From the sequence record NZ_CP118109.1: a DNA stretch of 64,000 nt; one strand, given 5' to 3'. The notes beneath the pieces were generated by a model. The model was given only the letters and a program-made list of their open reading frames with translations. It made no database searches and was not told where the DNA came from. Positions within the stretch are counted from its first letter, which is position 1, and every line of letters begins with the position of its first letter. The stretch is from a plasmid. Below are positions 1-54,992 of the stretch, piece by piece. Position numbers and translations under genes: made by a program.

Positions 1-3000
1 TCCAGGATCGTTAGGCTCTACTCTGAATCCGGAATCTGACTTATCAAACTCTGGATTTTCAACACCTGCCAATCTACGGATAAGACCAAGCCCAGCATTA
101 GAACTCCCACCTTCATCATTGATCGCATCAACGATGCCGCTAACACCAACACGCTCTACACTAACACCGGCGCTTGTGCCGAATTTCTTATATGGGCTGC
201 TTAATCCTCCATCTTGACCATGAATCTTTTGTAACTCTCGGATCGCGGCCTCATGTCCTGTTGATTGGCTTTCGCTATCAAGGAAGAACTGCCTGTCGAA
301 CTCATAGACCTTTTTCCAATCAGAGTCCGTTCTCGCGCGATACAAGGTATTAATAAAATCCATTGCGCTGTCTATCTCTTCCGCACCGTGCTTAGATGAA
401 ATCAGCTTCTGCTCTAAATCCTGACCGAAGTCATAGATTGCTTGCCGTGCAGCTTCATTATGACCAAGGTAAGTCTTAGCTTGCTGACGCATAGCGTAGT
501 TAAGGTTGGACGCATGACCGATAACCATCTTACCTGATTTCGCCGTAAGCTCGGAACGATCATTCGCCGCAAATTGAGTAAACTCGTCTTCGCTGCTTAG
601 ATTCGGAAGTTCAAAACTTCGAGCCCCTTCATCGCCAGAGAATTTATTGATCAGCTTATCCATTCTTTCTGTACGCTGTTGTTGCTGCTCATTGTAGATC
701 CTGCCCCACTCAGCTTGAATCTTTTCGTCGCTCAGTGCTACGATATTATCGTAGTCACCGTCTGAGTCGGCTTTCATTAGGGATGCCGTCAATGCGGTTA
801 CGTGAAACTCTCCTGGTTTTATATTCTCGTCCATCATGAGTCGAGTGATCTGCATTGCATTATCATGGAACGTAGGGTAGCGAACATTCATTGTATAGAA
901 GGGCTTATCTGGATCGCTCAATTTTTCATAAATCCCCATCTTCTTTGCATCTTCTGGAGAGATGTATGTTCTCTCGCCATCCATAGCATCCGAAGTCCTT
1001 GGGTCGATCAGTTTAAAGATACCGGTACCGGACTCATTCATATTGGTTTTGAATACGCTGCTGTACGTCTGACCTTTAGAAGAAGTTACGTCTTTAACCA
1101 GTTGATTAACGTAGCCATCAATGGATCTTTGCAGGGATTCATGAGCTTCTACAGCTTCCTTGTAATTTGTAACCCCATCGTTCTTGCCGATCCTTGCAGC
1201 ACGCTCATAGATTTTGGCGATATTCTTTTGAAGCTCTCTGAAATGGATATCTCCGCCTTTTCCTTCTTGAGCTGTAAACGGAATAAAGATCTTATCTATG
1301 GCCTTCCTTCTTTCAGAGTCGGCGCCTCTTCCCACAACTTTGTCAACGTAGGTATATTCCAAATCACCAACCTTCGGGAGCTCTAACCAATAACCTTCTC
1401 CGTTCATCCCTTCTCCAAGCATTTGGGATACATGGGATCGATCAAATATGGTTCCCATAAGCGAATGCTCATTCTTGCCATACTTGCTGGTAGGAAGGTT
1501 TTTGAAATCATTAACAGACAGCGTAGGACCTTCAACGGACTCCGGATTTGCAATAGCTCCAAGGGCTGTTATCATATTTCTGGATTCCTGGGCACGATAG
1601 TTTGCTTGATTTGTCTCGAGCATCCGATTATACATGTGCTCTTTTGTAGCTTCCGCACCCATGTTGTCCAGAACTCCGTACTCACGATGTCCCCATGTAA
1701 CACCTTTTATGGCGTTTTCTCCACCTGCATAGATTGGATCGTCACCTCTAAACTCGATAACAACTCTACCTGTCTTATCAGTCATTCGAGAATAATTCTC
1801 CACTTGCGAAGCCCTAACTTCCTGAATCGCAGTCGTTAAGCCTGTGCTAGTCTTGTTATTCAAATTAATATCTGGGTGAGCGAAGAGCTGATCAAATGCG
1901 TCTGTTTTGATGCCCGCATTTGAATTAACTAGGAAACGATCCTCATTCCAGTTTAATCCGATGCCAGATTCCTCGACAGCTCTGATTGCGCGTTGCTGCT
2001 GCTCGGGAGACATCCCTTGAATATGATCAGCCAGTAGTTTGGCTTGACCTGTCATCATGGCTCCAAAGTCTTTATGCTTTCCTACATCAGGATTGTAGAT
2101 GGCTGTGATGTCATCTGATCCTGTAAGATATCTCATTAGCTCTCTTGAGACTGTAGTGTCAGTTGTTTTTTCTCCTTCAATCATGAATTTGAACGGCTGA
2201 TCTTCAGTATGAATCCCGATTCTGTTCTCATCATAATCCGTGAAAATGGTTCCTGTTTTATTTCCGTCATAGAATACTTTCTCTTCAACGCCAGACACCG
2301 TTCTTACTCCGAGCAGATCCCCTGGATTTACCGTTGTCCTTAGATGCCCATCTTCGTAGAAGGCACTATTCCAAGTAAAGGAGTCACCCTTGTCGATAAA
2401 GGTGTGATTATCTACTTTATAAGCATCCATGATTTCTTTAGTAAAGATAGCCTGCTGTTCGTACAATCTAGCTTTTGCCATGGAGTCAGATAGCTGTTTT
2501 TTAATACTCTGACTTACACTACTATCGGCAAGAAGCTGCTGAACACGATCGTCGAGCTGAGCCTGTGACATGTAGGCGACTTTCATATTAACGCCGCGCT
2601 GTGCAGGATTGGCTTTATTTCGCTCTTCCATAGCTGCCGTTGTAACAAGACTATCGAAGTATGAAGGCTTTATTCCGGCTTCAAGAAGCCCCTGCCTAGT
2701 CTTCTCATTAACGTTGTAGCTGTTGAACCACTGGACAGCATTATCACGACCGTTAAAGCTGTACGCACCAAGTGGATGATAATCCTGAATGTTCTTGAAA
2801 GACCATATTCCTCTGGAAACATTTTCGGATTTAACGCTGCCAGCATAAAGATTCAGTTCTTTGCTTGCCGCCCAATCATCAACTTCCTTAATCATTTCAT
2901 AAGCTTTGTTAGGAGAGAGATCATCAAAAGTTGCATGCCGTATATTGCTGCCACGCTGTAGGGCTCTTCCTAGCCAATCTTCCCGTATATCTCTATCAAG

Positions 3001-6000
3001 GTTTATGCGCCCCTGCTCATGCCATTCCTGAATCATAGCCGGAGCTATGCTTACGTGAGATTGCTTTAGGAAGTCAGAGTCATTGTTTGCCCAGTAATAT
3101 CCATCGTTTTGAGATAAAACATTTCGCTTGATTCCAGACAAGGTTTCGATCTCATTTCGCAAAGCCCTCTTGCTCATTAAGTCCGCTTCCTCATACTCAT
3201 CGTTCCTAATGGCATTTAAGATATTGCGCATTTCAAAGGAGTCCGTATATCCTCTAGCGATCATTTCCGCAGAAGAAATAGTTTTAGTATCTCCCCCTTC
3301 GTTGACTAGAAAAGATCGAGCGTTGAGTACTTGGTTTCCGATAACATGTGTTCCATTCTGTTGAATCAGCGGAACGATGATTTCGGATGCTTTGCTGTGC
3401 GACTCACCTGCAAGGAATTTCTCCATGACACTCGCACTGTTTTCACTCTTAAAGATCTGAATCCGCGCTTGAGTTCCTTCTTCATTCACCGAAAGATTGT
3501 ATTGAAGCCCATGCATCCCCATTTTGTCAGCAGTCGTTCTGTATGTTTCCAGAATGTGATTAACAGCCGAAGAGTTGTTGCTTCTCAATCCGGATGCATG
3601 TTCTACACCATCAAGCCGTGAAAAGATATCAACCGCACTTTCATCCATTTTTACCCGCTGATTAGCAATCCCTTGCTGTAAAATAAAGCCTTGAACTCCG
3701 TTAGTCTTCTTGATAGCAGACTGAATCATTTGCTGGTTAACAGCTTCGCTCACTTGCTGCATTTCAGCTCTGCGCCCTACGGATTTAATTTTAAGATTCT
3801 GCTGCATGATATCATGGTTGTCCATCAAGTCTTGAACCATCATACTGATGCTGTCATTAATGGCGAAGCTTCGATTAAATTCGTGGAACTTGTTTGCCAC
3901 TTTCCTATTGATTACGTTGCTCTCTTGAAGTGAAGTAATCAGGTTCCCGAGCCGTTCTTTCCTGAGATCAACGCCGTCATCCGGACTTCCGATCTGACGA
4001 TAAATTGCGTTGCGGGCAGTGGCCATCGTTTCGAAGTTTAGATATCTCTGCTCTTTTCTGGCAGTGCTTCGATCGAAATAGTGTATGCCTCTTTGCTCAA
4101 ATGGCTGTGTTGGGCGTTCAGTTGTATCTCCTCCAATTGTGCCATTCACTTCTTGATTGTAGAGCCTCCAGGCAATATCACGCTGCTGCCTAGTCCGTCT
4201 TGCTTCCATATCGCTCATATCTGGATTGATCGGAAATTGTTCTTCGATAGCTTCAATCGCTTTACTGTAATGAGGAAGCTCATCTACAAGTCGTGGCGCC
4301 ATTCGGAAGAATAGGCGCTGCTCTGTCTCGTTTAACCTACCTCCTGGTAAGCTATTGAAATTCATGCGCTCCATCATCTCTTCATGAGTGATTCGGTTAT
4401 CCATCAAACGTTTGCGAGCTTCTTCAGGATCGTCTTCAATGTGATCTATCACATTTTGGATATGTCCACCCTTTCCTTCTAAGCGCTCACGGTAAACTGC
4501 AGCGTTACTATACATACGCTTGGCTGCTTCAAAGCCTCGAGTGGTTGAGTTTCCACCAGCACCCGAAAGAGAGGTTAGGCTTTCATATCTTCGTCTGGCC
4601 AAGTCTCTTTCTTTCTGGATGCGAATTTCCCGCTGCATGTCTTTTGAAAGACCGTTCCAGTAATAGAATTTTTGCTGGACAAAATTTTCGATTTGCTGAA
4701 TTGCATCATCACCTTCACGAATGATGAATGAATTTGCCTTTGTATCTGGATTGTATAAATCCAGCGCTAATCGATTTGTCTTTAAAGTTCCATCCTCATT
4801 ATAGTCTGAGATATTTCGTAAACCCTGTACCTCGTAGAAAGACTTGCTGTTGACAGCCATACGATTAAAATCCGGTTCATCTGCTACAAACGATCCGTCT
4901 TCTGATCTTGCTTGAAAATCAAACTCCCCATTCCCGTAAGCCATTGCTCCGCCAATTGAAAATAGGCGATCTCCTTTTCTAAGCTGCCGATCACTCCAGC
5001 TTAACTGTGTAGGATGATAATTGAATCCAAAGGTGTCGATCCCAGGAAGTGATTTTGCATCCTCAATTGTTTGACTGACACCATTAAACATTCTGGAGAA
5101 AACTCCACCCAAGCCCTCTTCACCAATATCATGCGCCGCATTATGGGCCGCACCCTGATCAAAGCCAAAAGTTCTGCGCAGCTCCTGCAGCGTACCTAGA
5201 CCTCCCATTGCCGGTTTAGATTCGAATGATCTGCCAAAGCTTGTGTGCAGTCCCTTCATATTTGGATAAGATGATTGGATAACTCTCAAGAAGTCGATAT
5301 GCTTCTTCGGCCCCAAAATAGGCTCACCTATCTTTTTACTCCATTGCTCCAATGCTGGTATATCAAAATTAGTACCATTGTGAGATAAGAAGTACTTGTA
5401 GCGATTATCATGAAGGAATTTGTTATAGCGATTAATAACCCCCAGATGATCCTTTTCTCCATTCGCCTGCAGATCATTAAACCCTTGATTAATATGACGA
5501 AGATAAAATTCAAAATTCTGAATAAACTTCAAATCATCAATTGTTCCATCTGTGCGTAGAATCTGATTCACGACTTGGTTATGGCTGATATTTGTTACTC
5601 CTCGGTTTGTTTGCAGGATAGCACCTGAAACGCCGCCTTCGTTTGAGGTAGAGTAACGCATTAAGTCGATGACCGAACGCTGCTCAGAAGAGGTTAATTT
5701 CCGGAAGCTGTATGGATCTGTTTTGATCTTTTTTATCAGGCCTTTCATTTCTGTTGCTGACTTATTATCTAGGGCAAGCAGTGCATTAAATACACTCTTT
5801 GAACTAGCTTTATAGGTGCCACCTGCCTGTCTGCTAAAGCTTTGCGCTGCAATCTCAGTCACCCCGAATCCTGATCCATCGTTTTTAGATCGATCTCCCA
5901 TGGTCTCAATATCGAAAGCAACATAGGAATTGTGTCTACTGCTTGGATTCTTAGCCCTTTGGACGAACTCTTGGAATACATCAATGGCGCTTCTTGCCTG

Positions 6001-6246
6001 ATTATTGTTAGCTGTGTAAAGCTCAGGCATGACTTTGTAGCGTCCTTGTCCAATGATTGATTTTGCTGACAGCTGTGAATTATTAATCTTCTCCACCAGC
6101 TCGTTTACTTTCCCTTGTCGGCTATCTCTTTTTGCGTAATTTGGACTTGTAACAGGATTAAATGCGGTAACTGGCACCCAGGTTCCGCGGCTGTTTGGAG
6201 CAACCGCTTGGAACCCTTCTGCCATTAGAATTTCCTCAATCCCCAT
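1..6246 (-). CDS. Giant ORF (>=2082 aa, runs off window edge; start ATG 6246..6244 with RBS AAGGAAGTGAG). N-terminal DnaQ-like DEDDh 3'-5' exonuclease domain. C-terminal region has a beta-prime-like double-psi beta-barrel with RYPTFH and ADSDGDYD motifs: candidate virion-type single-chain two-barrel RNA polymerase
   Basis: Manually translated in frame over the whole 6.2 kb with no stops. Exo I AFDIETMG (~5896-5919), Exo II SHNGTNFDIPAL (~5362-5382), Exo III HNAAHD (5128-5145). RYPTFH at 865-882 and DSDGD at 754-768. The ~150 aa around the barrel align with the 51360..54992 protein (FKLIDP../FMVQDP.., RYPTFH/RNPAIA, ADSDGDY/ADNDGDE, IGHASNLNYAMRQQAKTY/IGQLTNIATRLADAVRKV). Confidence 0.6.
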   Translation of the reverse strand, partial: MGIEEILMAEGFQAVAPNSRGTWVPVTAFNPVTSPNYAKRDSRQGKVNELVEKINNSQLSAKSIIGQGRYKVMPELYTANNNQARSAIDVFQEFVQRAKNPSSRHNSYVAFDIETMGDRSKNDGSGFGVTEIAAQSFSRQAGGTYKASSKSVFNALLALDNKSATEMKGLIKKIKTDPYSFRKLTSSEQRSVIDLMRYSTSNEGGVSGAILQTNRGVTNISHNQVVNQILRTDGTIDDLKFIQNFEFYLRHINQGFNDLQANGEKDHLGVINRYNKFLHDNRYKYFLSHNGTNFDIPALEQWSKKIGEPILGPKKHIDFLRVIQSSYPNMKGLHTSFGRSFESKPAMGGLGTLQELRRTFGFDQGAAHNAAHDIGEEGLGGVFSRMFNGVSQTIEDAKSLPGIDTFGFNYHPTQLSWSDRQLRKGDRLFSIGGAMAYGNGEFDFQARSEDGSFVADEPDFNRMAVNSKSFYEVQGLRNISDYNEDGTLKTNRLALDLYNPDTKANSFIIREGDDAIQQIENFVQQKFYYWNGLSKDMQREIRIQKERDLARRRYESLTSLSGAGGNSTTRGFEAAKRMYSNAAVYRERLEGKGGHIQNVIDHIEDDPEEARKRLMDNRITHEEMMERMNFNSLPGGRLNETEQRLFFRMAPRLVDELPHYSKAIEAIEEQFPINPDMSDMEARRTRQQRDIAWRLYNQEVNGTIGGDTTERPTQPFEQRGIHYFDRSTARKEQRYLNFETMATARNAIYRQIGSPDDGVDLRKERLGNLITSLQESNVINRKVANKFHEFNRSFAINDSISMMVQDLMDNHDIMQQNLKIKSVGRRAEMQQVSEAVNQQMIQSAIKKTNGVQGFILQQGIANQRVKMDESAVDIFSRLDGVEHASGLRSNNSSAVNHILETYRTTADKMGMHGLQYNLSVNEEGTQARIQIFKSENSASVMEKFLAGESHSKASEIIVPLIQQNGTHVIGNQVLNARSFLVNEGGDTKTISSAEMIARGYTDSFEMRNILNAIRNDEYEEADLMSKRALRNEIETLSGIKRNVLSQNDGYYWANNDSDFLKQSHVSIAPAMIQEWHEQGRINLDRDIREDWLGRALQRGSNIRHATFDDLSPNKAYEMIKEVDDWAASKELNLYAGSVKSENVSRGIWSFKNIQDYHPLGAYSFNGRDNAVQWFNSYNVNEKTRQGLLEAGIKPSYFDSLVTTAAMEERNKANPAQRGVNMKVAYMSQAQLDDRVQQLLADSSVSQSIKKQLSDSMAKARLYEQQAIFTKEIMDAYKVDNHTFIDKGDSFTWNSAFYEDGHLRTTVNPGDLLGVRTVSGVEEKVFYDGNKTGTIFTDYDENRIGIHTEDQPFKFMIEGEKTTDTTVSRELMRYLTGSDDITAIYNPDVGKHKDFGAMMTGQAKLLADHIQGMSPEQQQRAIRAVEESGIGLNWNEDRFLVNSNAGIKTDAFDQLFAHPDINLNNKTSTGLTTAIQEVRASQVENYSRMTDKTGRVVIEFRGDDPIYAGGENAIKGVTWGHREYGVLDNMGAEATKEHMYNRMLETNQANYRAQESRNMITALGAIANPESVEGPTLSVNDFKNLPTSKYGKNEHSLMGTIFDRSHVSQMLGEGMNGEGYWLELPKVGDLEYTYVDKVVGRGADSERRKAIDKIFIPFTAQEGKGGDIHFRELQKNIAKIYERAARIGKNDGVTNYKEAVEAHESLQRSIDGYVNQLVKDVTSSKGQTYSSVFKTNMNESGTGIFKLIDPRTSDAMDGERTYISPEDAKKMGIYEKLSDPDKPFYTMNVRYPTFHDNAMQITRLMMDENIKPGEFHVTALTASLMKADSDGDYDNIVALSDEKIQAEWGRIYNEQQQQRTERMDKLINKFSGDEGARSFELPNLSSEDEFTQFAANDRSELTAKSGKMVIGHASNLNYAMRQQAKTYLGHNEAARQAIYDFGQDLEQKLISSKHGAEEIDSAMDFINTLYRARTDSDWKKVYEFDRQFFLDSESQSTGHEAAIRELQKIHGQDGGLSSPYKKFGTSAGVSVERVGVSGIVDAINDEGGSSNAGLGLIRRLAGVENPEFDKSDSGFRVEPNDPG

Positions 6247-6258
6247 GAACTCACTTCC

Positions 6259-9200
6259 TTACATCAGAGAATCCATATTCTCTTTGAAATAGTTATCAAT
6301 CTCGTGACTTCGATCTTCCTCGTACCTAAAGTTCACACTGGTTTCATTTCCTCCATTAGGAGCTATGCGAATATCCACATCCGTGAGTCCCTGCCCTTCC
6401 AATACAGCTCGAATGTTATCCTGCATTTCTTGATAGCCTGAGAATTGAGGCCCGTTCAGATAAACGTCGTTGCCTTCAGGTGAGATGTCAGGCAGATAAC
6501 TGGATGAGACAACATCATCTGTCCAGAAATTGAAATCACTCATATCCAATCCGGCTTCTTGAACTGCCTTCACTTTCATATCATCAAGGTCGACTTTTGG
6601 ATTCCATCCGATCCAGCCGGGGTCAGGCAGGACGAACTTGGAGAACACTTCCTCCAAGGGAGCAGGACCTTCATTTTCCATTCCCCATAATGCTTTATAG
6701 ATGCGCCGTTGGTTTTCTGGAATGACTTCTAGGATTCGCTGTCGGTCCTTTTCAGGAGCTTCAACAAAATCATCAAAGAACCATTTATCCTTGTATGGGA
6801 ATGCACTAGCCAGCTTCATTCGATCGCCATATGGGTCAGCACCGTAGACTGTGCGCTCATACATATCTTTGTAATGCATGGCCATAAGCACTTCTTGCGG
6901 CAGTTGCACTTCGTTGAATCCTTGACCCATTAACTCGATCTCTTTATTGATAGCTTTTCGCTGATCTTCCCATCCTTCAGGCTGATCAATGAATAGTCTG
7001 ATCTTCTGATCTTCCAAATCACGCTTTCGCTGCTTATTCATTTCCTGTCGAGCTTCTTCGCTCCCAAGAATAGCATCAACATCATAACCAGCTTCAGCGG
7101 CATCAACCTTGGCTTGCTCATATAAGCCACGAAACTTCATGTATTTAAGGACATCGAAGTATTCGTTAATATCATTCTCTATTCGTCTACGCTCAGGAAT
7201 CCATGCTTCGCCTGTTTCTTTCTCGTAATTCTGTCTATAAAGATTGCCGATTCCAGCTCCCAAGGCTCCAACAATACCACTGCGCAGAATATTCTTCTTA
7301 CTTGCTCCAAAGATATTTAAGAATCCGCCAACAGCTGCGCCAGCAATTGCTCCACGCATCATCGACTCATCCAGATCATGACGGATGATAGATTGGAATC
7401 CAGGGATGAGATAATCATCAATCAAGAAGTTTTCCCATGTTGCCCAGTCCTTACCGTAGACCTGATCCCTCTCATACTCCTCAAGAGCTGTACGCACCTG
7501 CAGGAACTTCGTATTCAGTGGCGACTCATAGTGAGCAATCCGCTCCCATCGTGCGCCCTTGCTAATCTCAGAATCTGAGAATCTTGAGAATACACCTGCT
7601 GCTGAGAAATCAGTTAGATTCTCTTTCATAAGTCCGCGAGCAAGAATGTCACGGTTGATATTTCCGATGTCTTCGTTATAAACGACAACCCGTGCTGTCT
7701 TGTACGTATCATTCGAAATCTGCTTACTCTCATCGCCATTGAGACCGATGGTGACTTGATCGCCAATACCCAAATACGATCGAAGAACGCCTTCTGCTTT
7801 CCCTCTTAAATCGACACCGGCTAGTCTAAAGACTTGATCGCCAAACTCTTCTGTTACAAAGCTGTAGTCGTCCAAGAATTTACGCACTGTAGCCTGTTGA
7901 TATTCAAGTTCAGCGCCCTCAAAGCGATAAGGAGTAAATTCATACTTCTGCTTTCTTTGAGCCACCTGGCGCTTAATTTCAGCCGCTTGTTTTCTCAGCT
8001 CGGCGTCCGTGCTCGTCTCCACGACATAATCACGCCAGAATTTGTATTCGTCACTCCAAGGCGCTACATCAGCCAGTATCTTAAATTTATCGAAGGCACC
8101 GTAAGCACCTGTCTCATCGGGATGAAGTTGATTGAGCTTTTCATATGTTTCTCCCGGTAGTCGGTATTCACCATTCTCTATTTTCTGATAGGGATCGCCG
8201 CTTTGGAAGTCAATGAAATAGTCTGAACCAGGCAGCCAATCTGGCATGGTGTTTCGGATTGGATTAAACTTATCCAACTGTCCATCATCACGCCGTATGA
8301 ACCGGCGCCCAATCTCGGAGAGCTGTCCTCCAAGAGAACCTGCATTCAGGGACTGGAAAGCATTCGATAGATTGTAAGCTGCATCAGCTTTCTCAATAAC
8401 TGTCTTACCTTCATAAGGATTGTATCCGAAGACTTCATCTTGCAGAATCCATTTGTATACCCCTAGAGGTTCTGACCAGTTTTCCCATGCTTCCTGCATA
8501 AGCCATCCGGCCTGTGTTGGATCTTGAAGGTCTTCTAGCTTCCGGTTCTCAAGCTCTTGCTTGTAGGCGAATCCGTCATCAAACATGGCACGAGGTTTCG
8601 TTTTAATCAGAGTATCATCGTCCGTCTTCTCAGCAATATTGAATAACTCTTCGATGGTGTAGTCTTTATTGGCCACATTTGCTGGCACGTAGATGGCTTG
8701 CCCTGTATTGACCTCTTGAGCAACATAAGCCCCTGTTTGATTCCCCTCAGCATCCTTCTGGTGAATCTGGATATAGCGAGGCGCCGAAGTATCAGCATCC
8801 CTTGTATATTGATTAGCACCATAGTCTTCAGAGTCTGCGTATACAACATTCTCCGTTCGACCGCCTGGAGAGAACCGCGTCACGATTGGCGAGTTAGGAC
8901 GATTACCAAATTCCGATGTCTGCTCCTGCATTAAGATAGGATCGCCCCAGTATTCGGGATGCATCTTCTCAGTCGGTTTAATAAGCTGACCAATCGTGGC
9001 ATTTCCGATATCTCCAAAGAAAGGTGTATTCGGGTTGAATAGTGATCCAGTAATCAGATAAGGACGATCATAGAAATGTTTCCTTTCCCAGTAGTACGGA
9101 TCCTTCATCCCGAAGGCGTAAGCCAATCCCCCTAATGGATTTCGGAAGGTTGGCAGCATATTAGCTTCTGACCATCGCTCCTCATTGGTTAGGTCTGTGT

Positions 9201-12132
9201 CACTGTCCTCCGCATCCGACATAGCAAGTCGGTAGCTGTTAGGTCGATGCTCAGTAATACGATCTCCTCGGTAGGCCGACTTAGAACCAAACGCCCACCA
9301 TCTACTCTTACGCACTTCATCCACGCCATACTGCAGGTATTCTTCATACTCTTCAGCAGAGTATGCTTCCTTCTCATCAATCGGCGTTCCGCCATATCCA
9401 AGAGCAGATGCAGCAATGTAGCCCGGACCTACAGGACCAATGCCCGGAAGATAAATGCTAGGCATAGCGGCAAAGTGATCAATCCCAGGAGTGAGCATCC
9501 TTGCCCTTTTCTCTTCCTCTGTCTTTCCACTTTCATCATCAGCCCAAGCTTCAATGAGATTCGTTCTAGCCTTATAGTTTTCCCAGCGATCAGATACACT
9601 CTGTCCTGTAGACTGCTCAACTTCCCAATCCAAATACTGAGCGTACTGTGTGCCAAGATAGATTGGAAGGAATCTCTTGAGCATTAGGGAAGACATCATC
9701 TTCAGTGGGCTTGTCATTGAGTCATCTGAGAATCCAAGCCCAAGATCACCTAGGGCATCCTGCAGACGATAGATCGGATAGTTGGCTCCAAAGATCGAAA
9801 GGTTTGTGAAGTCCTCCATGTTTCTTCGACCCGTCCGAAGTCCCATCTGTTTTGCTTTATCTCCGAAGTCCGTGAAGAACTCAAGAAATCTTCCAGAGGT
9901 AGTCGTTGATTCAAATGCCTTATTCACCGCAATATATTCATCGTTTATACGGTTGACTGGTCTTGTTCCAGAGAACTTTTGAAATAGAGGATTGGTTACA
10001 TGAAGATTAGCTTTCACATTATCCTGGAATTTCAAAGCTTCTGGCGTCTGTCCGGTCATTAGATTATTAATGTCGTTAATTGCACCTGAAGGATTCGAGT
10101 TGATCCCGATTTCTGACTTCTTGTATTGTGCATGGCTGAATAGGAACTGTGTATCTTGCCACTCTTGTTTCGTCAGCTTGTCTGCATCAAAGAGATCGTC
10201 CGTATACTGTCTGAAATCAAATGGACTCATTGTGTTCATTTGCTTCCGGTGAACAAGCTGATTGATCAGATCGATACTAAGCTGCTGATGAATGCGATCG
10301 AATCCCGTTTGAATATTGGTATATTCTCCAAGCCAAGAGGAATCCCCTACGGGTCTTTTAGAATGCAGGAAAGCATCCGGATCGCGCTCATACTTTTGCC
10401 AGAGTGATTTCAGTTCACCGCTTGCCATTCTCTTTCCATCACCTTCACCCATGAAGCGAAACACTTTCATAAAGTCATCTTGCGTGCTGAAGGTAATCTC
10501 ATTAGCCTGAACAAAATCTCTCAAGCTGGCTGGCATATCATCCATCATATTGTTAAGGGATCGGGCAGATAATCCTTTAGTGTACTTCTCAAAATAAGCC
10601 CTGACAGCATAAGAACTCTCTTGATCGATACCGCCTTGAAGGGCTTTATTAATGACATTACGTTCCCAGTCTGGATTAAAGAACTTATTAACTCTCCCTA
10701 GCGCCCCATGAATGGCAGCATCCTTATCCTGCCTTCCTAAATCAAAGACGCCAGCAAAGAAGTTTCTCTGGCCACCTTCTTCGGTCATCATGCCTGACAC
10801 TTGCCGTGTTACCTTGCCAATCGTTCCGAATCTTGATGAGGTAAGAAACATATCACGCTGCTTATTTAGTACTTCCATACCTGCATCTGTGTTGACCGCG
10901 TTATCGTCAAAGAGACGAACGAATTTACCGTTGACGTAGATTAGCGGTTCATGGGCTCTCTCTTTGACATCTAAGCCACGTTGAGCGTTGAGTCCTGGCT
11001 GAACTACATCTCGGTTAAATATGCGGAAACTGGCAATCTCACGAGCTTCTTGCATATTGATGTTATCCCGCATGTGCATGAGTCCGCCCGGCAACGTCTT
11101 GGCGGCCCACTCTTTAACGCCTCTGCGCATATCATCATATGTTTTGTAATCGGTCCAATCGATGATCTTTCCGTTTCTCTCTCTAATGTATACATTCTCA
11201 TCAAACACAGATTGGCCAAACTTTTTGTTGTACTGCATGATCTCTTCCATGTGAGCAACAAGCTTAGGATCTACCTGCATAACTCCATTCTTATTCATGG
11301 CTAAGATGTCTTCTACAGTAGCCTGTCTGTGTCCATTCATTACGCCCTTGTATCGAGCTTCTTTTCGGGTCAGCGTATCCATCTGCTCGGCAGTAAACTT
11401 ACGCATCTTGGTTTGAATGCCTTCGATCCATTCGCGGGCTTCTTCTGAATCAGCACGATAATTCCTATTTCGATAGGCGTCTTGAATACGAGTAAATTGG
11501 TCAATTGCTTCCCGATCAGAAACACCGTGCTTGCGAAGGTGGGATGCCATCTGCTCGGACGGGAGCGATCTTAGGAACCCAGGATCTCCGCTCTCCATTG
11601 CACTTTGAATAGACTTTGCATGCTTAGGCATACGTGTTTCCACTTCTTTAAGAACGTCCCGGTACCGCAATCCTTCTTGGATGTGAAACGGTACTTGCTC
11701 CGTAATCATCTGTTCTCGCTGACGGATGTAGCGCTGCATATCGTATTCTTCTGCACCGCCGCGCCGACTAAACTCTCTCATCTGTTCAGTCTGACGCTTC
11801 ACTAATTCACTTCTTCGTTCATTGAATCTCCGGATCGATCCCGGCAAATCCCTTGTCAGAGTTCTTGAAGGACGCTGCTCTTGCATGATCTCTCTAGCCG
11901 CCTGATAGGAACCTTTAACTTGGGTATCAAAAAAACGCGTGATTTGTCGGGTAGCTCCGGTACGATGCATTAAAGCTCTTGCTGCAATGACACCCCCTAC
12001 TGCGATACCTGCCTTTGCAAAAAAGGACATTTCATCATCCTCTTCATTTGATTGCAAAAAGCGGGTCATTGGACGACTGTCATTATCTAAATAGGGGGTA
12101 AACTTATTCTCATCGTATTGTTCTCGTTCCAA
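6259..12132 (-). CDS. 1957-aa protein, putative tail tape measure protein
   Basis: Position after tube and chaperone-like genes; very long, mainly helical/charged; Gly-rich hydrophobic segments near N-terminus (GIAVGGVIAARALM) and C-terminus (GAIAGAAVGGFLNIFG..GIVGALGAGIGNLY). Confidence 0.5.
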   Translation of the reverse strand: MEREQYDENKFTPYLDNDSRPMTRFLQSNEEDDEMSFFAKAGIAVGGVIAARALMHRTGATRQITRFFDTQVKGSYQAAREIMQEQRPSRTLTRDLPGSIRRFNERRSELVKRQTEQMREFSRRGGAEEYDMQRYIRQREQMITEQVPFHIQEGLRYRDVLKEVETRMPKHAKSIQSAMESGDPGFLRSLPSEQMASHLRKHGVSDREAIDQFTRIQDAYRNRNYRADSEEAREWIEGIQTKMRKFTAEQMDTLTRKEARYKGVMNGHRQATVEDILAMNKNGVMQVDPKLVAHMEEIMQYNKKFGQSVFDENVYIRERNGKIIDWTDYKTYDDMRRGVKEWAAKTLPGGLMHMRDNINMQEAREIASFRIFNRDVVQPGLNAQRGLDVKERAHEPLIYVNGKFVRLFDDNAVNTDAGMEVLNKQRDMFLTSSRFGTIGKVTRQVSGMMTEEGGQRNFFAGVFDLGRQDKDAAIHGALGRVNKFFNPDWERNVINKALQGGIDQESSYAVRAYFEKYTKGLSARSLNNMMDDMPASLRDFVQANEITFSTQDDFMKVFRFMGEGDGKRMASGELKSLWQKYERDPDAFLHSKRPVGDSSWLGEYTNIQTGFDRIHQQLSIDLINQLVHRKQMNTMSPFDFRQYTDDLFDADKLTKQEWQDTQFLFSHAQYKKSEIGINSNPSGAINDINNLMTGQTPEALKFQDNVKANLHVTNPLFQKFSGTRPVNRINDEYIAVNKAFESTTTSGRFLEFFTDFGDKAKQMGLRTGRRNMEDFTNLSIFGANYPIYRLQDALGDLGLGFSDDSMTSPLKMMSSLMLKRFLPIYLGTQYAQYLDWEVEQSTGQSVSDRWENYKARTNLIEAWADDESGKTEEEKRARMLTPGIDHFAAMPSIYLPGIGPVGPGYIAASALGYGGTPIDEKEAYSAEEYEEYLQYGVDEVRKSRWWAFGSKSAYRGDRITEHRPNSYRLAMSDAEDSDTDLTNEERWSEANMLPTFRNPLGGLAYAFGMKDPYYWERKHFYDRPYLITGSLFNPNTPFFGDIGNATIGQLIKPTEKMHPEYWGDPILMQEQTSEFGNRPNSPIVTRFSPGGRTENVVYADSEDYGANQYTRDADTSAPRYIQIHQKDAEGNQTGAYVAQEVNTGQAIYVPANVANKDYTIEELFNIAEKTDDDTLIKTKPRAMFDDGFAYKQELENRKLEDLQDPTQAGWLMQEAWENWSEPLGVYKWILQDEVFGYNPYEGKTVIEKADAAYNLSNAFQSLNAGSLGGQLSEIGRRFIRRDDGQLDKFNPIRNTMPDWLPGSDYFIDFQSGDPYQKIENGEYRLPGETYEKLNQLHPDETGAYGAFDKFKILADVAPWSDEYKFWRDYVVETSTDAELRKQAAEIKRQVAQRKQKYEFTPYRFEGAELEYQQATVRKFLDDYSFVTEEFGDQVFRLAGVDLRGKAEGVLRSYLGIGDQVTIGLNGDESKQISNDTYKTARVVVYNEDIGNINRDILARGLMKENLTDFSAAGVFSRFSDSEISKGARWERIAHYESPLNTKFLQVRTALEEYERDQVYGKDWATWENFLIDDYLIPGFQSIIRHDLDESMMRGAIAGAAVGGFLNIFGASKKNILRSGIVGALGAGIGNLYRQNYEKETGEAWIPERRRIENDINEYFDVLKYMKFRGLYEQAKVDAAEAGYDVDAILGSEEARQEMNKQRKRDLEDQKIRLFIDQPEGWEDQRKAINKEIELMGQGFNEVQLPQEVLMAMHYKDMYERTVYGADPYGDRMKLASAFPYKDKWFFDDFVEAPEKDRQRILEVIPENQRRIYKALWGMENEGPAPLEEVFSKFVLPDPGWIGWNPKVDLDDMKVKAVQEAGLDMSDFNFWTDDVVSSSYLPDISPEGNDVYLNGPQFSGYQEMQDNIRAVLEGQGLTDVDIRIAPNGGNETSVNFRYEEDRSHEIDNYFKENMDSLM

Positions 12133-13604: not shown

Positions 13605-14372
13605 TTATCTTACATATAAAGGACCATTTATATCTCTGGCAATGAAATTGTAGACTTCCGTGATAGGCTGACCTTCAAAAGATGTACCGATGCCGACTTT
13701 GGATAAGCCATTAAGCTGCACTCCGTTTACTGTCTCAACTGTCACATTTGCAGGAGTTCTAAAACTTCCTGCAGTTGTAAAGAACTGCGTCCCCGGATTT
13801 AGCGACTCACTGACTGCACCATAGTTGATCTTAATATCGAAGCCGTAAGGATCAGCAGGGAAAAACGTTGTATATGGATTCGTCAACCTAGATTCATCAT
13901 CGGACGTTCCCCATAAAGCAGCTTCATATTCCTCAGCGATCTGCTCAAAGCTTTCCTTGCCATACATCGTTAGAATCTCATCCAACTTGTACTTTTTGAA
14001 ATCTTCTTTCTTAATAACGCCTTCCTGCTGTGCCTGATTGACCGCATAATTAATTGCGGTTGCATTCTTCAGCACTTCTTTCAGATATCCTACGCCCTTG
14101 AAGTTGATGCTGAACTGTCCTTGAACCATTCTCTGTCCGCGGGCAACCGTATCCATCGTATAGGAATGATATCCGTAAACCGGCAGCACCTGCTCACTCA
14201 GTGCAAACTGAATGGATGTCGCTTCGTCTACCCAAATATCTCCGAAGAATAAATTAACGTCTGCTCCTGAAAAGTAATCTTCATTAAATATCTGATACTC
14301 GACTCGATTATCGGGGCGCTTATAAAGGTTCCCTTGAGGGGATGGTTTTCTCCTTGAGCTATAAATGGCCAT
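13605..14372 (-). CDS. 255-aa tail tube-family paralog (tube initiator/terminator-like)
   Basis: Shares the segment LSEQVLPVYGYHS..RGQRMVQGQFSINF with the two tube proteins (..APIYTMGSPD..RGKRGISGSLVFTQF; ..FPVRALGRST..RGMRTITGVMSFTMF). Confidence 0.5.
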   Translation of the reverse strand: MAIYSSRRKPSPQGNLYKRPDNRVEYQIFNEDYFSGADVNLFFGDIWVDEATSIQFALSEQVLPVYGYHSYTMDTVARGQRMVQGQFSINFKGVGYLKEVLKNATAINYAVNQAQQEGVIKKEDFKKYKLDEILTMYGKESFEQIAEEYEAALWGTSDDESRLTNPYTTFFPADPYGFDIKINYGAVSESLNPGTQFFTTAGSFRTPANVTVETVNGVQLNGLSKVGIGTSFEGQPITEVYNFIARDINGPLYVR

Positions 14373-14857
14373 TATTTAATCACCCTTCTCATTGGATCAA
14401 TATCCAGAGCATAAAACTCATAGACGGATTCGGTGAGTAAGCTGTTAATACTTAATGACATACCTTCTGTATAAGTTGTAACACCATAAATCGTCAGTGC
14501 ACTTTTTGCTCCAAACTCATTTGCCATTGAAATGGTGATATCAAACATAGGCATCTCATCCATAAGCATGTTGTATCCTAGCTTTTTCACTTCTTCCATT
14601 GCTTGAAGAACAATGCTTTCATCAAACATCGTAAAACTCATCACACCAGTGATCGTGCGCATCCCCCTAGTGAAACCTTTCATGGTGCTTCTTCCTAGTG
14701 CTCGAACCGGAAACTTCTCTCTGAATATAGAATATGAAATAGTGGATAATTCACCGAATACTTGCGGCCCTTTTCCGGGCATATTAATAGTGGCTACGAT
14801 ATCTGAACCGGCGTAACTGGTGAACGTATGCATGTAGCCATTGGTCGCTCTTTTCAT
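14372..14857 (-). CDS. 161-aa tail tube protein paralog
   Basis: N-terminal FTSYAGSDIVATIN motif shared with the 240-aa tube protein. Confidence 0.55.
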   Translation of the reverse strand: MKRATNGYMHTFTSYAGSDIVATINMPGKGPQVFGELSTISYSIFREKFPVRALGRSTMKGFTRGMRTITGVMSFTMFDESIVLQAMEEVKKLGYNMLMDEMPMFDITISMANEFGAKSALTIYGVTTYTEGMSLSINSLLTESVYEFYALDIDPMRRVIK

Positions 14858-14884
14858 GGTGGCACCTCTTTCCTATAAGTATGT

Positions 14885-14913
14885 AAAAAAGGGCAGCCCT
14901 TTTGGAGCTGCCC
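14885..14913 (-). terminator. Rho-independent terminator GGGCAGC-N9-GCTGCCC followed by TTTTTT (minus strand), between the two tube genes
   Basis: 7-bp GC stem plus T6. Confidence 0.6.
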
Positions 14914-14921
14914 TTTGTCCA

Positions 14922-38350: not shown

Positions 38351-38383
38351 GTCACTTTATCTTAAATAATTATATATTAAAAA

Positions 38384-38397
38384 TGTAAGGCGTTACA
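38384..38397. promoter_or_regulatory. TGTAAGGCGTTACA motif copy upstream of the portal-candidate operon
   Basis: Same motif family. Confidence 0.5.
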
Positions 38398-38403
38398 CTT
38401 GTG

Positions 38404-50287: not shown

Positions 50288-50365
50288 ATTTTCTATACTC
50301 AAATTGTAATGCGTTACATTTTATTTGACAACAATTAAATTTTCTATAGGGGGCAATTTTCTATA
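50288..50365 (+). repeat. Three direct copies of ATTTTCTATA (50288, 50339, 50356) in the divergent control region
   Basis: Exact 10-mer repeats. Confidence 0.5.
50305..50318. promoter_or_regulatory. TGTAATGCGTTACA motif copy in the divergent control region
   Basis: 45 nt upstream of the minus gene start at 50260; followed on the plus strand by TTTTATTTGACA. Confidence 0.5.
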
Positions 50366-51343: not shown

Positions 51344-51359
51344 AAGGAGGAATCACTCT

Positions 51360-54300
51360 ATGTCAACTGATTCAAAGAAAGCTATGTCGTCCGTCCCTAT
51401 GTCCAACAAACAAACTAAAACAAACAAAAAGGAGCAATCTACAATGACTAACAACAAACAAGCACAAATCAACAAGCAACTGGCTGAGGTAAACCGTCTT
51501 TTCAACAAAGCTATCAAAGGTAACAAACTAGAGGCGCAAATGTCTGATTACAAGTCTACTTCTGTAGTATTGGATGCTATTGCTGAGTTCCCAGGATTGG
51601 GCGTTAAAACAAAGAATTATGAGGCTATCACAGCTGCTATCGCTAGTGGTAAGGATATCCGTACTGTTATGGAGAACCCGGAGCTTACTGGTGTTCCTAA
51701 GAATCAATATCGCTTCTTCCGTGCATTCATGGAAGAGAAAGGTGCAGAGATTCCTGCTATGGTGATTGCACCTACTCGTAAGCGTGTACGTACTGTATCT
51801 GTCGATCTATTGAAACATTCCCGCAACGAAGCTGGTGAAGTGGTGCTCAACGCGGAAGTCAGCTATCAATCTCAGTCTCAGCTTGCTGATGCATTCGGTA
51901 AATTGGTTCCAGCTACAGATAGCAATGATCTACACTTGGATGCGACTCACATTGTCTATATCGATTTGAATATCGCTGATCAAGAGAATCAAGAAATGAA
52001 AGACTTGCAAATCGAGATCGTCCGTAATGGATTCTATTACACAGTGGAAGGCGTTACACGCAAAGCTAACTTCTTTATTCAGACAGCAAATCAAACTCGT
52101 CAATTGCAAGGTATCTATATTGCAGAGGACTTCATGACGATTCCTCAAGCATTCCGCAAGCTTGGTCATAGCTTCCTGTCTTATTGCAAACTGGATAAGG
52201 CTACTGGTGTCTATACACTGGATATCACGAAGTATCTGAAACGTCCAGGTCTGTCTGGTACAAGCTCTGTGCCATCTAAGGTAGTAACCTTCCCTAATGC
52301 TCATATCGACAAGCTGCCTAACATGAGAACAGGAGAATACTTGGTTAACTCTGATCGTCACTCTATGGCAGTGATTGATGATCGCTTTGCTAAGATCAAG
52401 AATGGTAAGTTCAAAGCATTCTATAACAACCGTGTAGTCACTGTATCTGCGGTTGATGGTACATTCACAGCTACATGGAAAGAAGGACGCATGACTAAAG
52501 AAGAAGTCCTGCCTATGAACTATCTGAAGCTTGGCGTAGGCGATGGCTTGGTTCTAGCTTCCGAGTCGATCTACTGGGCATTGAAGGCTGAGTTTGGCAA
52601 TGATTCCGATGCATGGCAAGTACGTATCACCCCATTCGTTAAAGGCTTGATGGTATTCGTGCCAGGCTTGCGTCAATACTATGATGCAGATATCGTTGCA
52701 TTCAAGTCTGCTGTGAAAGGTGACTTCCGTTTGCTTGCTGATAGCGAAGGTAAGATTGACTTTGGTATTGAGCTGCGTATTGCACGCTTTGCTAAGCGTC
52801 CTGCTATGAAGTCTGAGTATGTAGAGCTTCCATATCAGTTTGCACATGTATCCAGCATTACAGCAGAGCAAATGATTGATGTTGCTCAACCACGCCTGGA
52901 TGAAGCTAAGAGTGTACTTACTAATCCTGCACTGATTCAAAAGTATGCAGGGGTTGCTCACTTGGAGAAGCTGAACAAGCTGACTCTTGCACAAGCTGAG
53001 TTTCTACGTGATCGCTCCCTTGTTTCTGTATTTGCTAACTTCATGCACTATGCTCCATTCACATTCCAAGATGCTTACATGCAAACAAGAGCACTGAGAC
53101 TGATGGGGCAGCAAGTAGACAAATGGGTTGCTGGTACGATTCCTGTAGAAGGCGAGTATCGCTTCATGGTTCAAGATCCATATGCATTGCTTCAAGCTGT
53201 GGAAGATGAGAATGGAGATATGATTGTCCCTGATCACGTTGGTCTTAAGCCACACCAAACATTCATGACAGCACGCGATAACCAACACTTTGTAGAGGGC
53301 CCTGTTGCATCCTTCCGTAACCCTGCTATTGCTAAAGGTGAAGGACGTATCTTGAATGGTGTAGCTCCACAAAACTATGTGACTGCTTCTGCTAAAGGCG
53401 CATTCAACTCTGTATGTGTAATGAGCTGCCATGACTTGGATACATTCGCTGAAGGCGGAGCTGATAACGATGGTGATGAAACATTCATTACACAAGTACG
53501 TGCTATCGTTAATGGCATCATGGGTAAAGATGGTCAATCTAAGTTCTTGGCTATGCTTGACCTGCATGTAGATAAAGATGGTGAGTGGTCTTCTGGATGC
53601 CCGTTCCCTATGGAATCTGATGAGAAGCTTGCATTTGATGCTCCTTGCGTATCACACGATGGACAATTCAAAGTGAAGTTCACTGCCGATCAATATAATG
53701 ATGCATTCATTCAAGCTGTACATGAGCTAAGCAAAGAGTATGTCATTCGTACACTGACTCCTAACAAGATCGGTCAACTGACTAACATTGCTACTCGTCT
53801 TGCTGATGCTGTACGTAAAGTAGGATATATGTATGCAGAGAATACCAATGAGTTTGGTCAAAAGACTGAACGTTCAGATGCTGAGAAACAAGAGCTGATT
53901 AGAGAGATCGCTCGTATGGAAGATATGATCGACTTGATTCGTCTGGCTCAAGGATGGGAGATTGACCGTGCTAAGCATGGTGGTGCATATGAGGAAGCAT
54001 TGGCTGCTGAATTGGAGTTCATCAACAATCCTCCAAGATATGCAGGATTCCAAGAGTCACCTAAATCCAAGCGTCAATGGATCAAGCAAGCATGGCTCGC
54101 ACATCACAAAGGTGCTGAGGGTGGAGTAGACACAGGTTCTGTAATGTCCCGTGTGCATAACCACATGAAAGCATTCGTACAAGAGAATGTAATCGACAAG
54201 TCCGAAGAGATCATGAACGATGTAGAGAACAACAACCTGATTCATATCCTGAGAGCTGAGTATGTTATTGATCCAGTTATCTATGACAGAATCGCTAACT

Positions 54301-54992
54301 CTATTCGTTCCATTCGCTCTATCTATACAAACGACATCAAGAACGCTCGTCAGAAGCATGAAGAGTTCATCAAGCTTGCTGAGCTGAAATATGGTGAGGC
54401 TGATCCTGCACTGGCGATGGCTAAAGAGAAGATCGAGCGTATCTATAGAGATGATTGCGATGCGATCACCTATAAGAGTCAAATGACACTTGGCGCTTTG
54501 GAGTTCTCTTTCTCTGCGACTGATATCGGCTATGTTGCATACATGGTGACATACACTGAGAGAGGTCAAGATAACAATCGTTCGATCAGCTTCCCTTGGG
54601 TCGTGGCTAAGAAGCAATTCTTGGAGCTGTGTGCTGCTATCTCTAATCGTGAGATTGTGAAGAACCCTTATGTTGTCCCTGCATCTGATATCAAGGCAAA
54701 CTTCCGTATTGGGGCTGATTCAACTGGTCGTGTGTTTGATGGAGAGAGAATGGCACCTGTCATTGCGAATGCAGGTATGGTAACAGTGGAGTATATGTAT
54801 AACGAAGTTACTGAAAGCTACATGTATGTTGTTTATGTTCCAGTAGGCAGCAGAAATGTATATGTAGGCGACTTCTACCAAGATCAAGTTGGATTCTTGA
54901 CTGGTGCAACACGTTTCAATCTTACAGTGTCCAATGCTGAAGCTAAAGGCAGAACTATGAGTCTGACGATCTCCAGCATCGAACGCATGTAA
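51360..54992 (+). CDS. 1210-aa single-chain two-barrel (YonO/RDR/crAss gp66-like) RNA polymerase candidate
   Basis: Beta-prime DPBB signature VASFRNPAIAKGEGRIL ... GGADNDGDETF (compare NRAPTLHRLG ... NADFDGDQM); RBS AAGGAGG 9 nt upstream of ATG 51360 (alternative ATG 51444 also has an RBS); the track N-terminal extension from 51087 translates a repeat array and is rejected. Confidence 0.65.
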   Translation: MSTDSKKAMSSVPMSNKQTKTNKKEQSTMTNNKQAQINKQLAEVNRLFNKAIKGNKLEAQMSDYKSTSVVLDAIAEFPGLGVKTKNYEAITAAIASGKDIRTVMENPELTGVPKNQYRFFRAFMEEKGAEIPAMVIAPTRKRVRTVSVDLLKHSRNEAGEVVLNAEVSYQSQSQLADAFGKLVPATDSNDLHLDATHIVYIDLNIADQENQEMKDLQIEIVRNGFYYTVEGVTRKANFFIQTANQTRQLQGIYIAEDFMTIPQAFRKLGHSFLSYCKLDKATGVYTLDITKYLKRPGLSGTSSVPSKVVTFPNAHIDKLPNMRTGEYLVNSDRHSMAVIDDRFAKIKNGKFKAFYNNRVVTVSAVDGTFTATWKEGRMTKEEVLPMNYLKLGVGDGLVLASESIYWALKAEFGNDSDAWQVRITPFVKGLMVFVPGLRQYYDADIVAFKSAVKGDFRLLADSEGKIDFGIELRIARFAKRPAMKSEYVELPYQFAHVSSITAEQMIDVAQPRLDEAKSVLTNPALIQKYAGVAHLEKLNKLTLAQAEFLRDRSLVSVFANFMHYAPFTFQDAYMQTRALRLMGQQVDKWVAGTIPVEGEYRFMVQDPYALLQAVEDENGDMIVPDHVGLKPHQTFMTARDNQHFVEGPVASFRNPAIAKGEGRILNGVAPQNYVTASAKGAFNSVCVMSCHDLDTFAEGGADNDGDETFITQVRAIVNGIMGKDGQSKFLAMLDLHVDKDGEWSSGCPFPMESDEKLAFDAPCVSHDGQFKVKFTADQYNDAFIQAVHELSKEYVIRTLTPNKIGQLTNIATRLADAVRKVGYMYAENTNEFGQKTERSDAEKQELIREIARMEDMIDLIRLAQGWEIDRAKHGGAYEEALAAELEFINNPPRYAGFQESPKSKRQWIKQAWLAHHKGAEGGVDTGSVMSRVHNHMKAFVQENVIDKSEEIMNDVENNNLIHILRAEYVIDPVIYDRIANSIRSIRSIYTNDIKNARQKHEEFIKLAELKYGEADPALAMAKEKIERIYRDDCDAITYKSQMTLGALEFSFSATDIGYVAYMVTYTERGQDNNRSISFPWVVAKKQFLELCAAISNREIVKNPYVVPASDIKANFRIGADSTGRVFDGERMAPVIANAGMVTVEYMYNEVTESYMYVVYVPVGSRNVYVGDFYQDQVGFLTGATRFNLTVSNAEAKGRTMSLTISSIERM

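Follow-up and report, generated by a model that had tools for sequence, protein, structure and literature searches.

Why should a giant open reading frame (ORF) among phage tail genes carry the motifs of both an exonuclease and a polymerase? This question is raised by positions 1 to 6246 of a 64,000-nt stretch (hereafter the window) of sequence record NZ_CP118109.1, a plasmid, in which an earlier examination of the letters (hereafter the sequence-only reading) had seen a candidate virion-packaged two-barrel RNA polymerase (RNAP). The analysis reported here indicates that an intact two-barrel polymerase core and a DEDDh exonuclease very probably occur together in this one protein. Whether it would be delivered with the virion to transcribe the incoming genome is weighed thereafter.

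The giant ORF is complete and uninterrupted

The minus-strand frame from 6246 to 1 was translated and holds 2082 codons and zero stops, as the sequence-only reading had claimed. Its start codon is the ATG at 6246-6244, directly after the stop of an upstream 1957-aa ORF. A protein search retrieved the complete protein (P0001, entered in the database as a hypothetical protein from a 214,846 bp 'plasmid' of Paenibacillus urinalis), which has 2259 residues and is 100% identical to the part encoded in the window. P0001 is also encoded, intact, on contigs from two different sequencing runs that represent independent read-run assemblies, which rules out an artefact of assembly as the source of the long frame; the ORF, earlier followed only to the edge of the window, is uninterrupted over its full 2259 aa in both. 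The motifs that had been quoted from it, AFDIETMG, SHNGTNFDIPAL, HNAAHD and MNVRYPTFH...KADSDGDYDNIVAL, were all found and their coordinates verified.

Searches with the giant ORF gave just one sub-threshold exonuclease match in PHROGs, and megablast matched neither the phages of INPHARED nor the plasmids of PLSDB. The 19 homologues that were collected (24-78% identity, 2233-2693 aa) sit on contigs of about 20 to 217 kb, mostly 190-217 kb; among their sources are Bacillus subtilis, B. atrophaeus, B. velezensis, B. licheniformis, Alicyclobacillus and metagenomes. Within these homologues a hydrophobic segment (ILGGSALALTGLIGY) near the C-terminus of the giant protein is conserved, and a terminal motif, DNTxxLxRxWYRDKV, lies beyond the window. 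In AlphaFold2 (AF2) predictions, globular enzyme domains account for about 1,200 of the 2,259 residues, and the remainder is mixed alpha/beta. For the middle region (residues ~400-1150), which is predicted to be folded, Foldseek found no match in the PDB outside the exonuclease domain, and no Pfam or PHROG match was obtained.

The C-terminal part is predicted to form a two-barrel polymerase core

Residues 1150-2082 were modelled by AF2 from 16 sequences, with a mean predicted local distance difference test score (pLDDT) of 82.5 and a predicted template-modelling score (pTM) of 0.78. When this model was compared with the PDB by Foldseek, 375 matches were obtained at E<=1e-3, and the top 50 were all largest or second-largest RNA polymerase subunits. 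The matches included bacterial beta', eukaryotic Pol I, Pol II and Pol III, vaccinia Rpo132 and the non-virion polymerases of AR9 and phiKZ, and no PolD chain was among the top ones. These matches to the largest as well as the second-largest subunits indicate that both halves of a polymerase core are predicted, the beta-like one ahead of the beta'-like one. The model contains two double-psi beta-barrel domains, one beta/Rpb2-like and one beta'/Rpb1-like, the latter predicted around DSDGD, where the sequence-only reading had expected such a barrel.

Conservation was then read along the 19 homologues, at identities down to 24%. R1789, P1791, F1793, H1794, A1826, D1827, D1829, G1830 and D1831 are invariant, as are K1353, E1359, K1360, T1362 and H1391 in an upstream beta-rich segment, where K1390 is near-invariant; downstream of the catalytic barrel, K1903, K1906, G1910, N1916, Q1946, I1949, K1952 and H1953 are likewise invariant. 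In a local alignment the register of the DxDxD triad agrees with D460/462/464 of RpoC. The strength of the polymerase case, given a modelled structure, is this conservation pattern together with the predicted fold, not pairwise similarity. As modelled, the core resembles multisubunit-type enzymes more closely than the clade of the RNA-dependent RNA polymerases (RdRP) and YonO, and PF05183, the family of that clade, gave no match to the giant ORF.

A DEDDh exonuclease domain lies near the N-terminus

Exo I DxE, Exo II D and Exo III Hx4D occur in DEDDh order in the protein's N-terminal part, with an insertion of roughly 100 residues separating Exo I from Exo II. The three motifs noticed by the sequence-only reading are thus present, although they span the first ~375 aa and not, as it had stated, ~330. 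D112, E114, D295, H368 and D373 are invariant across the 19 homologues, again down to 24% identity. Pfam RNase_T was matched by the giant protein at E 5e-4 and 21.1 bits, under the cut-off of 24; among the homologues, RNase_H_2 was matched by 13 of the 19 (best 2e-6), Rv2179c-like (2e-5) and DNA_pol_B_exo2 were also matched, and one source labels a homologue 'DNA polymerase III epsilon subunit-like'.

An AF2 model of residues 1-1150, built from nine sequences, had a mean pLDDT of 71.8, with values of 80-90 over residues ~100-390. Foldseek of this model against the PDB returned RNase T as the best match, then the DNA polymerase epsilon catalytic domain and 3'hExo. The RNase T and 3'hExo chains had a probability of 1.0 and target TM-scores of 0.48-0.66, those of the best matches being 0.55-0.66, at E values of only 3.5e-3 and weaker; the Pol epsilon chains reached a probability of 0.14-0.35 only. 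An RNase H-like exonuclease fold for residues ~100-400 is supported by this predicted structure, and the earlier DEDDh call gains support from the five invariant residues and the RNase T-type predicted fold. The coordinates of all features are collected in Table 1.

Table 1. Features of the giant ORF, its upstream neighbour and the early-region polymerase, with positions in the window.
Feature	Coordinates	Strand	Basis
Giant ORF, residues 1-2082 of the 2259-aa protein	1..6246	-	Open frame; final 177 residues outside the window
Predicted beta/Rpb2-like half including the first double-psi barrel, residues ~1150-1700	1147..2799	-	
FKFMIEGEKTTD...KHKDFG segment, candidate basic residues of the beta-like barrel	2062..2193	-	Invariant columns; model beta-strands 193-217; putative active-site role
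Predicted beta'-like catalytic barrel MNVRYPTFH...KADSDGDYDNIVAL, residues 1786-1838	733..891	-	Invariants; RpoC local alignment; sub-threshold PF00623
DSDGD, putative metal-binding triad D1827, D1829, D1831	754..768	-	Invariance; 79/80 family members
Candidate bridge helix, residues 1897-1926	469..558	-	Model helix 748-777; invariant K1903, K1906, G1910, N1916; putative assignment
Candidate trigger-loop segment EQKLISSKHG, residues 1945-1954	385..414	-	Invariant Q1946, I1949, K1952, H1953; analogy with beta'
DEDDh (RNase T/DnaQ-like) 3'-5' exonuclease domain, residues ~100-400	5047..5949	-	Invariants; sub-threshold Pfam; AF2/Foldseek
Exo I AFDIETMG (D112, E114), residues 110-117	5896..5919	-	Sequence and invariance
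Exo II SHNGTNFDIPAL (D295), residues 288-299	5350..5385	-	Sequence and invariance
Exo III HNAAHD (H368, D373), 'h' type, residues 368-373	5128..5145	-	Sequence and invariance
Middle region, mixed alpha/beta, conserved within the family, residues ~401-1149	2800..5046	-	AF2 pLDDT mostly 60-90
Ribosome-binding site AAGGAAGTGAG of the giant ORF	6250..6260	-	Read directly; overlaps the stop codon of the upstream gene
Upstream 1957-aa ORF, gp145 orthologue	6259..12132	-	BLASTP E 2e-106 and 1.5e-62
1210-aa RdRP/YonO-type two-barrel polymerase, candidate non-virion	51360..54992	+	Homologues carry PF05183

The fusion is conserved in a family of giant proteins

An exhaustive profile search over 1.84 billion representative proteins yielded only 89 clusters; the majority are proteins 2050-3120 residues long, in which the module keeps its relative position. 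Among 80 full-length family members, DxD[GAS]D occurs at the same relative position in 79, often as the canonical ADFDGD; the N-terminal profile was matched by 57 of them, and the Exo I motif [FYLW]D[IL]E[TS]xG is found near the N-terminus in most. These N-terminal profile matches and Exo I motifs across the family indicate that the exonuclease-polymerase fusion is a conserved trait.

A relative is present on seven viral contigs of IMG/VR, 70-216 kb long, and in each of them it lies between giant ORFs. When 50,697 phage records were searched by tblastn with the full protein, no match reached E<=1e-3, so that no isolated phage among those deposited has a BLAST-detectable homologue. The literature was searched for the family and for an exonuclease-RNAP fusion, and neither was found, which is not proof of absence; DSDGD does not occur in the table of the viral RNAP survey of PMC10770324.

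The giant ORF occupies the position of a known virion protein

Between ~41.6 kb and position 1, the minus strand of the window carries the structural module of a myovirus, in the order terminase, portal, protease-like, major capsid, sheath and sheath paralogue, tube-like, two small conserved and giant ORFs. Three giant ORFs of 1957, 2259 and 2145 residues are consecutive when the flank is included; the 2145-aa ORF, just beyond the window, gave matches to a hub/lysin family of phages and to a glucosaminidase domain, and baseplate genes come next. By sheath protein, the closest isolated phages are Moorella phage MTATph1 and Bacillus phage 0305phi8-36. The annotated order in the latter is sheath, tube, two chaperonins, gp145, gp146 and gp147, of which gp145 (1930 aa) and gp146 (2537 aa, 'hypothetical tape measure protein') are annotated as virion proteins by mass spectrometry and gp147 as a hub with cell-wall hydrolase domains.

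The 1957-aa ORF is the orthologue of gp145 and the 2145-aa protein that of gp147 (BLASTP E 5.5e-58), so the giant ORF between them is the positional counterpart of a protein known in virions. To gp146 itself it showed a weak BLASTP match over the last ~145 residues (E 0.12), and gp146 has been reported as alignable to its counterparts in related prophages over the last 60 residues alone (Hardies et al., 2007; PMC2147016). The family profile gave no significant match to gp145, gp146 or gp147, and gp146 is therefore treated as a positional counterpart only.

The ORF upstream of the giant one, taken by the sequence-only reading as a tape measure candidate, is actually the gp145 orthologue, a virion protein without assigned role; in the 0305phi8-36 literature the 'tape measure' label falls on the position of the giant ORF (gp146), not on that of gp145. 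The giant protein, whose position is compatible with such a label, is predicted to be globular in about 1,200 residues and mixed alpha/beta in the rest and has no tape-measure Pfam or PHROG match, and was not placed in that class. A giant ORF in the late structural module with a second polymerase elsewhere matches the gene arrangement of virion-packaged RNAPs.

In gp146 (L003, 16624-24237), the DEDDh-like motifs TYLDIETTG, QNVADAD and HLARAD were seen by eye near residue 1160, and a hydrophobic segment is present near the C-terminus; the gp146 record has no exonuclease domain annotation. In MTATph1 (L011, 11513-18869, CDS0027-0031), the middle one of the three giant genes, CDS0027, encodes 1309 aa only. 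A transposase gene and three small ORFs intervene between CDS0027 and the hub/lysin gene, so that an insertion sequence may have disrupted CDS0027. In the family profile, it is the Exo I region that CDS0027 matches (E 8e-7, five-sequence search). The exonuclease seems to be the older occupant of the middle giant-gene position, and the polymerase a lineage-specific addition.

Elsewhere in the module, three adjacent minus-strand ORFs of 240, 161 and 255 aa (13605-15644) match phrog_9206 'major head protein'. They directly follow the sheath gene, where 0305phi8-36 has a tube gene and a tube paralogue; the label is probably wrong, and the ORFs are more likely tail tube paralogues.

A second polymerase is encoded in the early region

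The 1210-aa protein of the early region carries the motifs FRNPAIAKGEG and GGADNDGDE, and in its homologues Pfam recognises PF05183 (RdRP), one of them being named 'RNA dependent RNA polymerase'; the protein's profile gave weak PDB matches to plant RDR2, and its best phage tblastn match was an Enterocloster phage gene annotated as RdRP. The start at 51360 is the most plausible, and the database protein P0102 (1210 aa) begins there; the mechanical ORF start at 51087, which gives a 1301-aa reading, adds 91 residues (51087-51359, +) that are Cys/Leu/Pro-rich and look non-coding. The counterpart in 0305phi8-36, orf99, has already been proposed as a YonO-type DNA-directed RNA polymerase (PMC2147016; PMC7824862).

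The sequence-only reading had regarded the giant ORF as recognisably paralogous to this protein. BLASTP detected no similarity between the two and hhalign gave a probability of 0.09 between their families, so this specific paralogy was rejected; the two belong to separate branches of a single superfamily. Homologues of the one and of the other are found on contigs that agree exactly in length (213,157 and 208,156 bp), suggesting that the two polymerases travel together.

Proposed role of the giant protein

The full explanation that we favour, with a confidence somewhat above even, is that of an injected virion RNAP that opens a relay. The giant protein would belong to the tail/ejection module of a ~215-kb 0305phi8-36-like myovirus, present as a plasmid-like replicon in P. 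urinalis, and its C-terminal ~930 residues would constitute a nucleotide polymerase that has both barrels in a single chain and whose RxPxxH...ADxDGD magnesium site is intact. It would be packaged at the gp146 position through the conserved hydrophobic C-terminal segment and the terminal segment, be ejected into the cell before the DNA or together with it, and act as a DNA-dependent RNA polymerase on the first genes of the incoming genome, which would make the first round of transcription host-independent. The early RdRP/YonO-type enzyme (51360-54992) would take over later, in a two-polymerase relay as in P23-45, N4 and phiKZ. The exonuclease of the giant protein may trim nucleic-acid 3' ends in the entry complex, for example those of backtracked or mis-extended RNA, of the template or of DNA, the leading guess being the 3' end of a transcript or template.

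The open frame, the predicted domain folds, the conservation of catalytic residues, the synteny and the family distribution were obtained here; RNA (not DNA) synthesis, the DNA template, the virion location, the timing and the exonuclease substrate are what we infer. For virion packaging of the giant protein, the basis is gene position alone.

A number of results weigh against this proposal. By the Smith-Waterman method, the 53-residue catalytic block landed on R425-D464 of E. coli RpoC (RAPTLH...NADFDGD) with a score of 38, which was equalled by 49 of 1000 shuffles (p about 0.05), and the beta-like block found no match in RpoB by sequence alignment. The family profile scored against E. coli RpoB/RpoC no better than against 400 shuffled decoys, and phmmer and profile hmmsearch against PDB sequences gave no polymerase match, weak PolB-exonuclease matches alone being returned. 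Pfam PF00623 (Rpb1 domain 2) was sub-threshold in five of the 19 members (best E 7.6e-4) and in one of four distant members with the canonical ADFDGD. Sequence methods alone therefore fail to tie the module to RNAPs, and the case rests on a structure predicted from 16 sequences. The beta' barrel match drawn by the sequence-only reading keeps its RpoC register, and two barrels appear in the AF2 model, but the pairwise similarity is marginal, and the strength then attributed to the sequence evidence was overstated. Further, beta' N458 reads ribose hydroxyls, and the equivalent position, two residues before the first aspartate, varies in the family (K/N/R/A/E/G), which makes the sugar specificity uncertain.

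With respect to delivery, gp146 and the Moorella phage counterpart have no DxDxD motif of any kind, so the virion evidence carries over by position and not by polymerase homology. A folded polymerase core of ~930 residues is also hard to fit in a tail tube, and no convincing shared early-promoter motif was found in the plus-strand intergenic regions of 50-64 kb.

Alternative explanations

The best-surviving alternative, which we nonetheless hold to be unlikely, is a polymerase that is expressed late and not packaged. Regulation would then account for its place in the structural operon, and it would work inside the infected cell, on late genes for instance, and not as an injected enzyme. This alternative would accord with the lack of a homologue of the polymerase module in the virion-verified gp146, and it would avoid the clash of a folded ~100-kDa core with a classical tape measure that fills the tail tube. 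However, the place between two virion-protein orthologues is conserved at every locus examined, the hydrophobic C-terminal segment is conserved and the terminal motif is weakly common to gp146, an early-encoded second polymerase already fills the intracellular role, and the known giant polymerase fusions of such kind are all virion proteins (PMC10770324).

Two further alternatives concern what the exonuclease and the core do together. That they form one virion-delivered machine, either a proofreading RNAP, whose exonuclease would trim transcript 3' ends as Gre/TFIIS-assisted cleavage at the active site does in cellular RNAPs, or a PolD-like two-barrel DNA polymerase of a bacterial virus with its proofreader, appears distinctly unlikely; the PolD-like option, if true, would take PolD-like replicative chemistry outside archaea for the first time. 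That the two-barrel core is a PolD-like DNA polymerase or primase, with the DEDDh domain as proofreader, which repairs, completes or primes the injected genome, is judged very unlikely. DEDDh fusions are typical of DNA polymerases, one homologue bears the epsilon subunit-like name given above, the beta' N458 equivalent is not conserved in the family, and two-barrel DNA polymerases do exist (PolD; PMC7281927). The fold matches disfavour this explanation, and the PolD-like reading was given low weight because the PolD chain is absent from the top ones.

Finally, a mainly structural tape-measure or ejection protein with enzyme-like parts that are catalytically irrelevant relics or scaffolds is hardly credible: the position is annotated 'hypothetical tape measure protein' in 0305phi8-36 (PMC2147016), and the same-position proteins of that phage and the Moorella phage manage without the polymerase module, but relics would not keep the catalytic residues of both domains invariant at 24-35% overall identity and the triad in 79 of 80 distant members, and the roughly 1,200 residues of globular enzyme folds are not the extended helix of such a protein.

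Comparison with known systems

N4 gp50 is a giant injected RNAP that opens a multi-polymerase relay, and the giant ORF would resemble it in this role; gp50 is, however, a T7-like right-hand polymerase of unrelated fold. An injected two-barrel RNAP in a giant virion protein, followed by a second, later polymerase, is of a kind already known, so the novelty claimed by the sequence-only reading was overstated for the architecture and stood for the exonuclease fusion, which was not found in the literature searched.

In P23-45, it was shown experimentally that the two-barrel polymerase fused to the tape measure protein transcribes the pre-early genes, one of which encodes a second two-barrel polymerase (PMC10770324). 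The virion enzyme is gp96 and its non-virion partner is gp64 (PMC10770324). In gp96 the polymerase is N-terminal and ~3,800 residues of tape measure come after it, in a siphovirus and with no exonuclease, whereas the giant ORF has the polymerase in the C-terminal half, the exonuclease at the N-terminus and a contractile tail. Moreover, gp96 and gp64 cluster together, while the two polymerases of the Paenibacillus element are not detectably related (hhalign 0.09). The virion-packaged two-barrel RNAP gp66 (PDB 6VR4) of phi14:2, a crAss-like phage, is also among the closest known systems. The virion and non-virion RNAPs of phiKZ and AR9 consist of four or five polypeptides encoded outside a giant protein of the tail module, in contrast to the giant ORF, which carries both predicted halves in one chain with the exonuclease.

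YonO of SPbeta and the PF05183 proteins are comparable as single-chain two-barrel RNAPs with a DxDGD motif in Bacillus-group phages; the giant ORF lacks the PF05183 match, and it is the 1210-aa early ORF that belongs there. With gp146 the giant protein shares the position flanked by gp145 and gp147, a similar size, DIETTG/HLARAD motifs, the C-terminal hydrophobic segment and a weakly alignable C-terminus, but gp146 has no DxDxD and no similarity to the polymerase profile, and its exonuclease motifs lie mid-protein (~residue 1160) and not at the N-terminus. RNase T and DnaQ are alike in the Exo I-III motifs and the predicted fold, and the giant ORF differs from them by the ~100-residue insertion between Exo I and Exo II, the two-barrel fusion and the sub-threshold Pfam match.

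The family itself, its occurrence in a contractile-tailed 0305phi8-36-like lineage of Bacillales, the fused beta/beta'-like core and the conserved DEDDh fusion appear undescribed. Virion-delivered two-barrel RNAPs are known from few lineages, namely the phiKZ-like, crAss-like and P23-45-like ones; if the proposal is true, the contractile-tailed ~200-kb elements of Bacillus, Paenibacillus and Alicyclobacillus would be the fourth, and some carriers (B. subtilis, B. velezensis, B. licheniformis) are tractable hosts. As the modelled core is nearer to multisubunit beta/beta' and yet one polypeptide, it would be a useful data point on the fusion and splitting of RNAP subunits in evolution. The DEDDh fusion raises the question of 3'-end editing or template processing at genome entry, and in the 0305phi8-36 lineage the 'tape measure' position, occupied by a protein with unannotated exonuclease motifs, would be reinterpreted.

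Other features of the window

The minus-strand ORF at 44973-46166 matches the 'partition protein' PHROG 691 (E 3e-39), which together with the NCBI plasmid label suggests that the ~215-kb element is kept as a phage-plasmid. At 62759-62869, in a stretch of 37% GC, a unit of ~21-28 nt with the core TATTTCATATGAT(T/A)TA is repeated in tandem four to five times; the repeats resemble the iterons, partition sites or operators that a plasmid-like prophage would have.

The element GCRTTACATTT occurs in 13 copies (<=1 mismatch) against 2.7 expected, a number reached in 0 of 100 shuffles. Its sites include 50302-50321, 38381-38400, 57847-57857 and 59425-59435; at the first two, a pair of facing copies forms the near-palindrome TGTAATGCGTTACA, and the 50302-50321 site is within the divergent region that separates the late and early gene blocks. 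An operator or promoter element is possible. Between 46000 and 64000, sigma-70-like promoter matches were not enriched (49 vs. 54.6 expected, none with >10/12 positions), a result uninformative either way, and intrinsic-terminator-like sites were enriched (23 vs. 9.9 expected).

In front of each of two adjacent plus-strand ORFs of equal length (157 aa; 58892-59365 and 59390-59863) stands a copy of one GGAGCCTAACGGCTCC hairpin, whose tail is T-rich. The hairpin copies, at 58867-58901 and 59365-59399, each overlap the start of the downstream ORF, and the second stands at the 3' end of the first ORF; the pair looks like a tandem gene duplication that includes the terminator-like hairpin.

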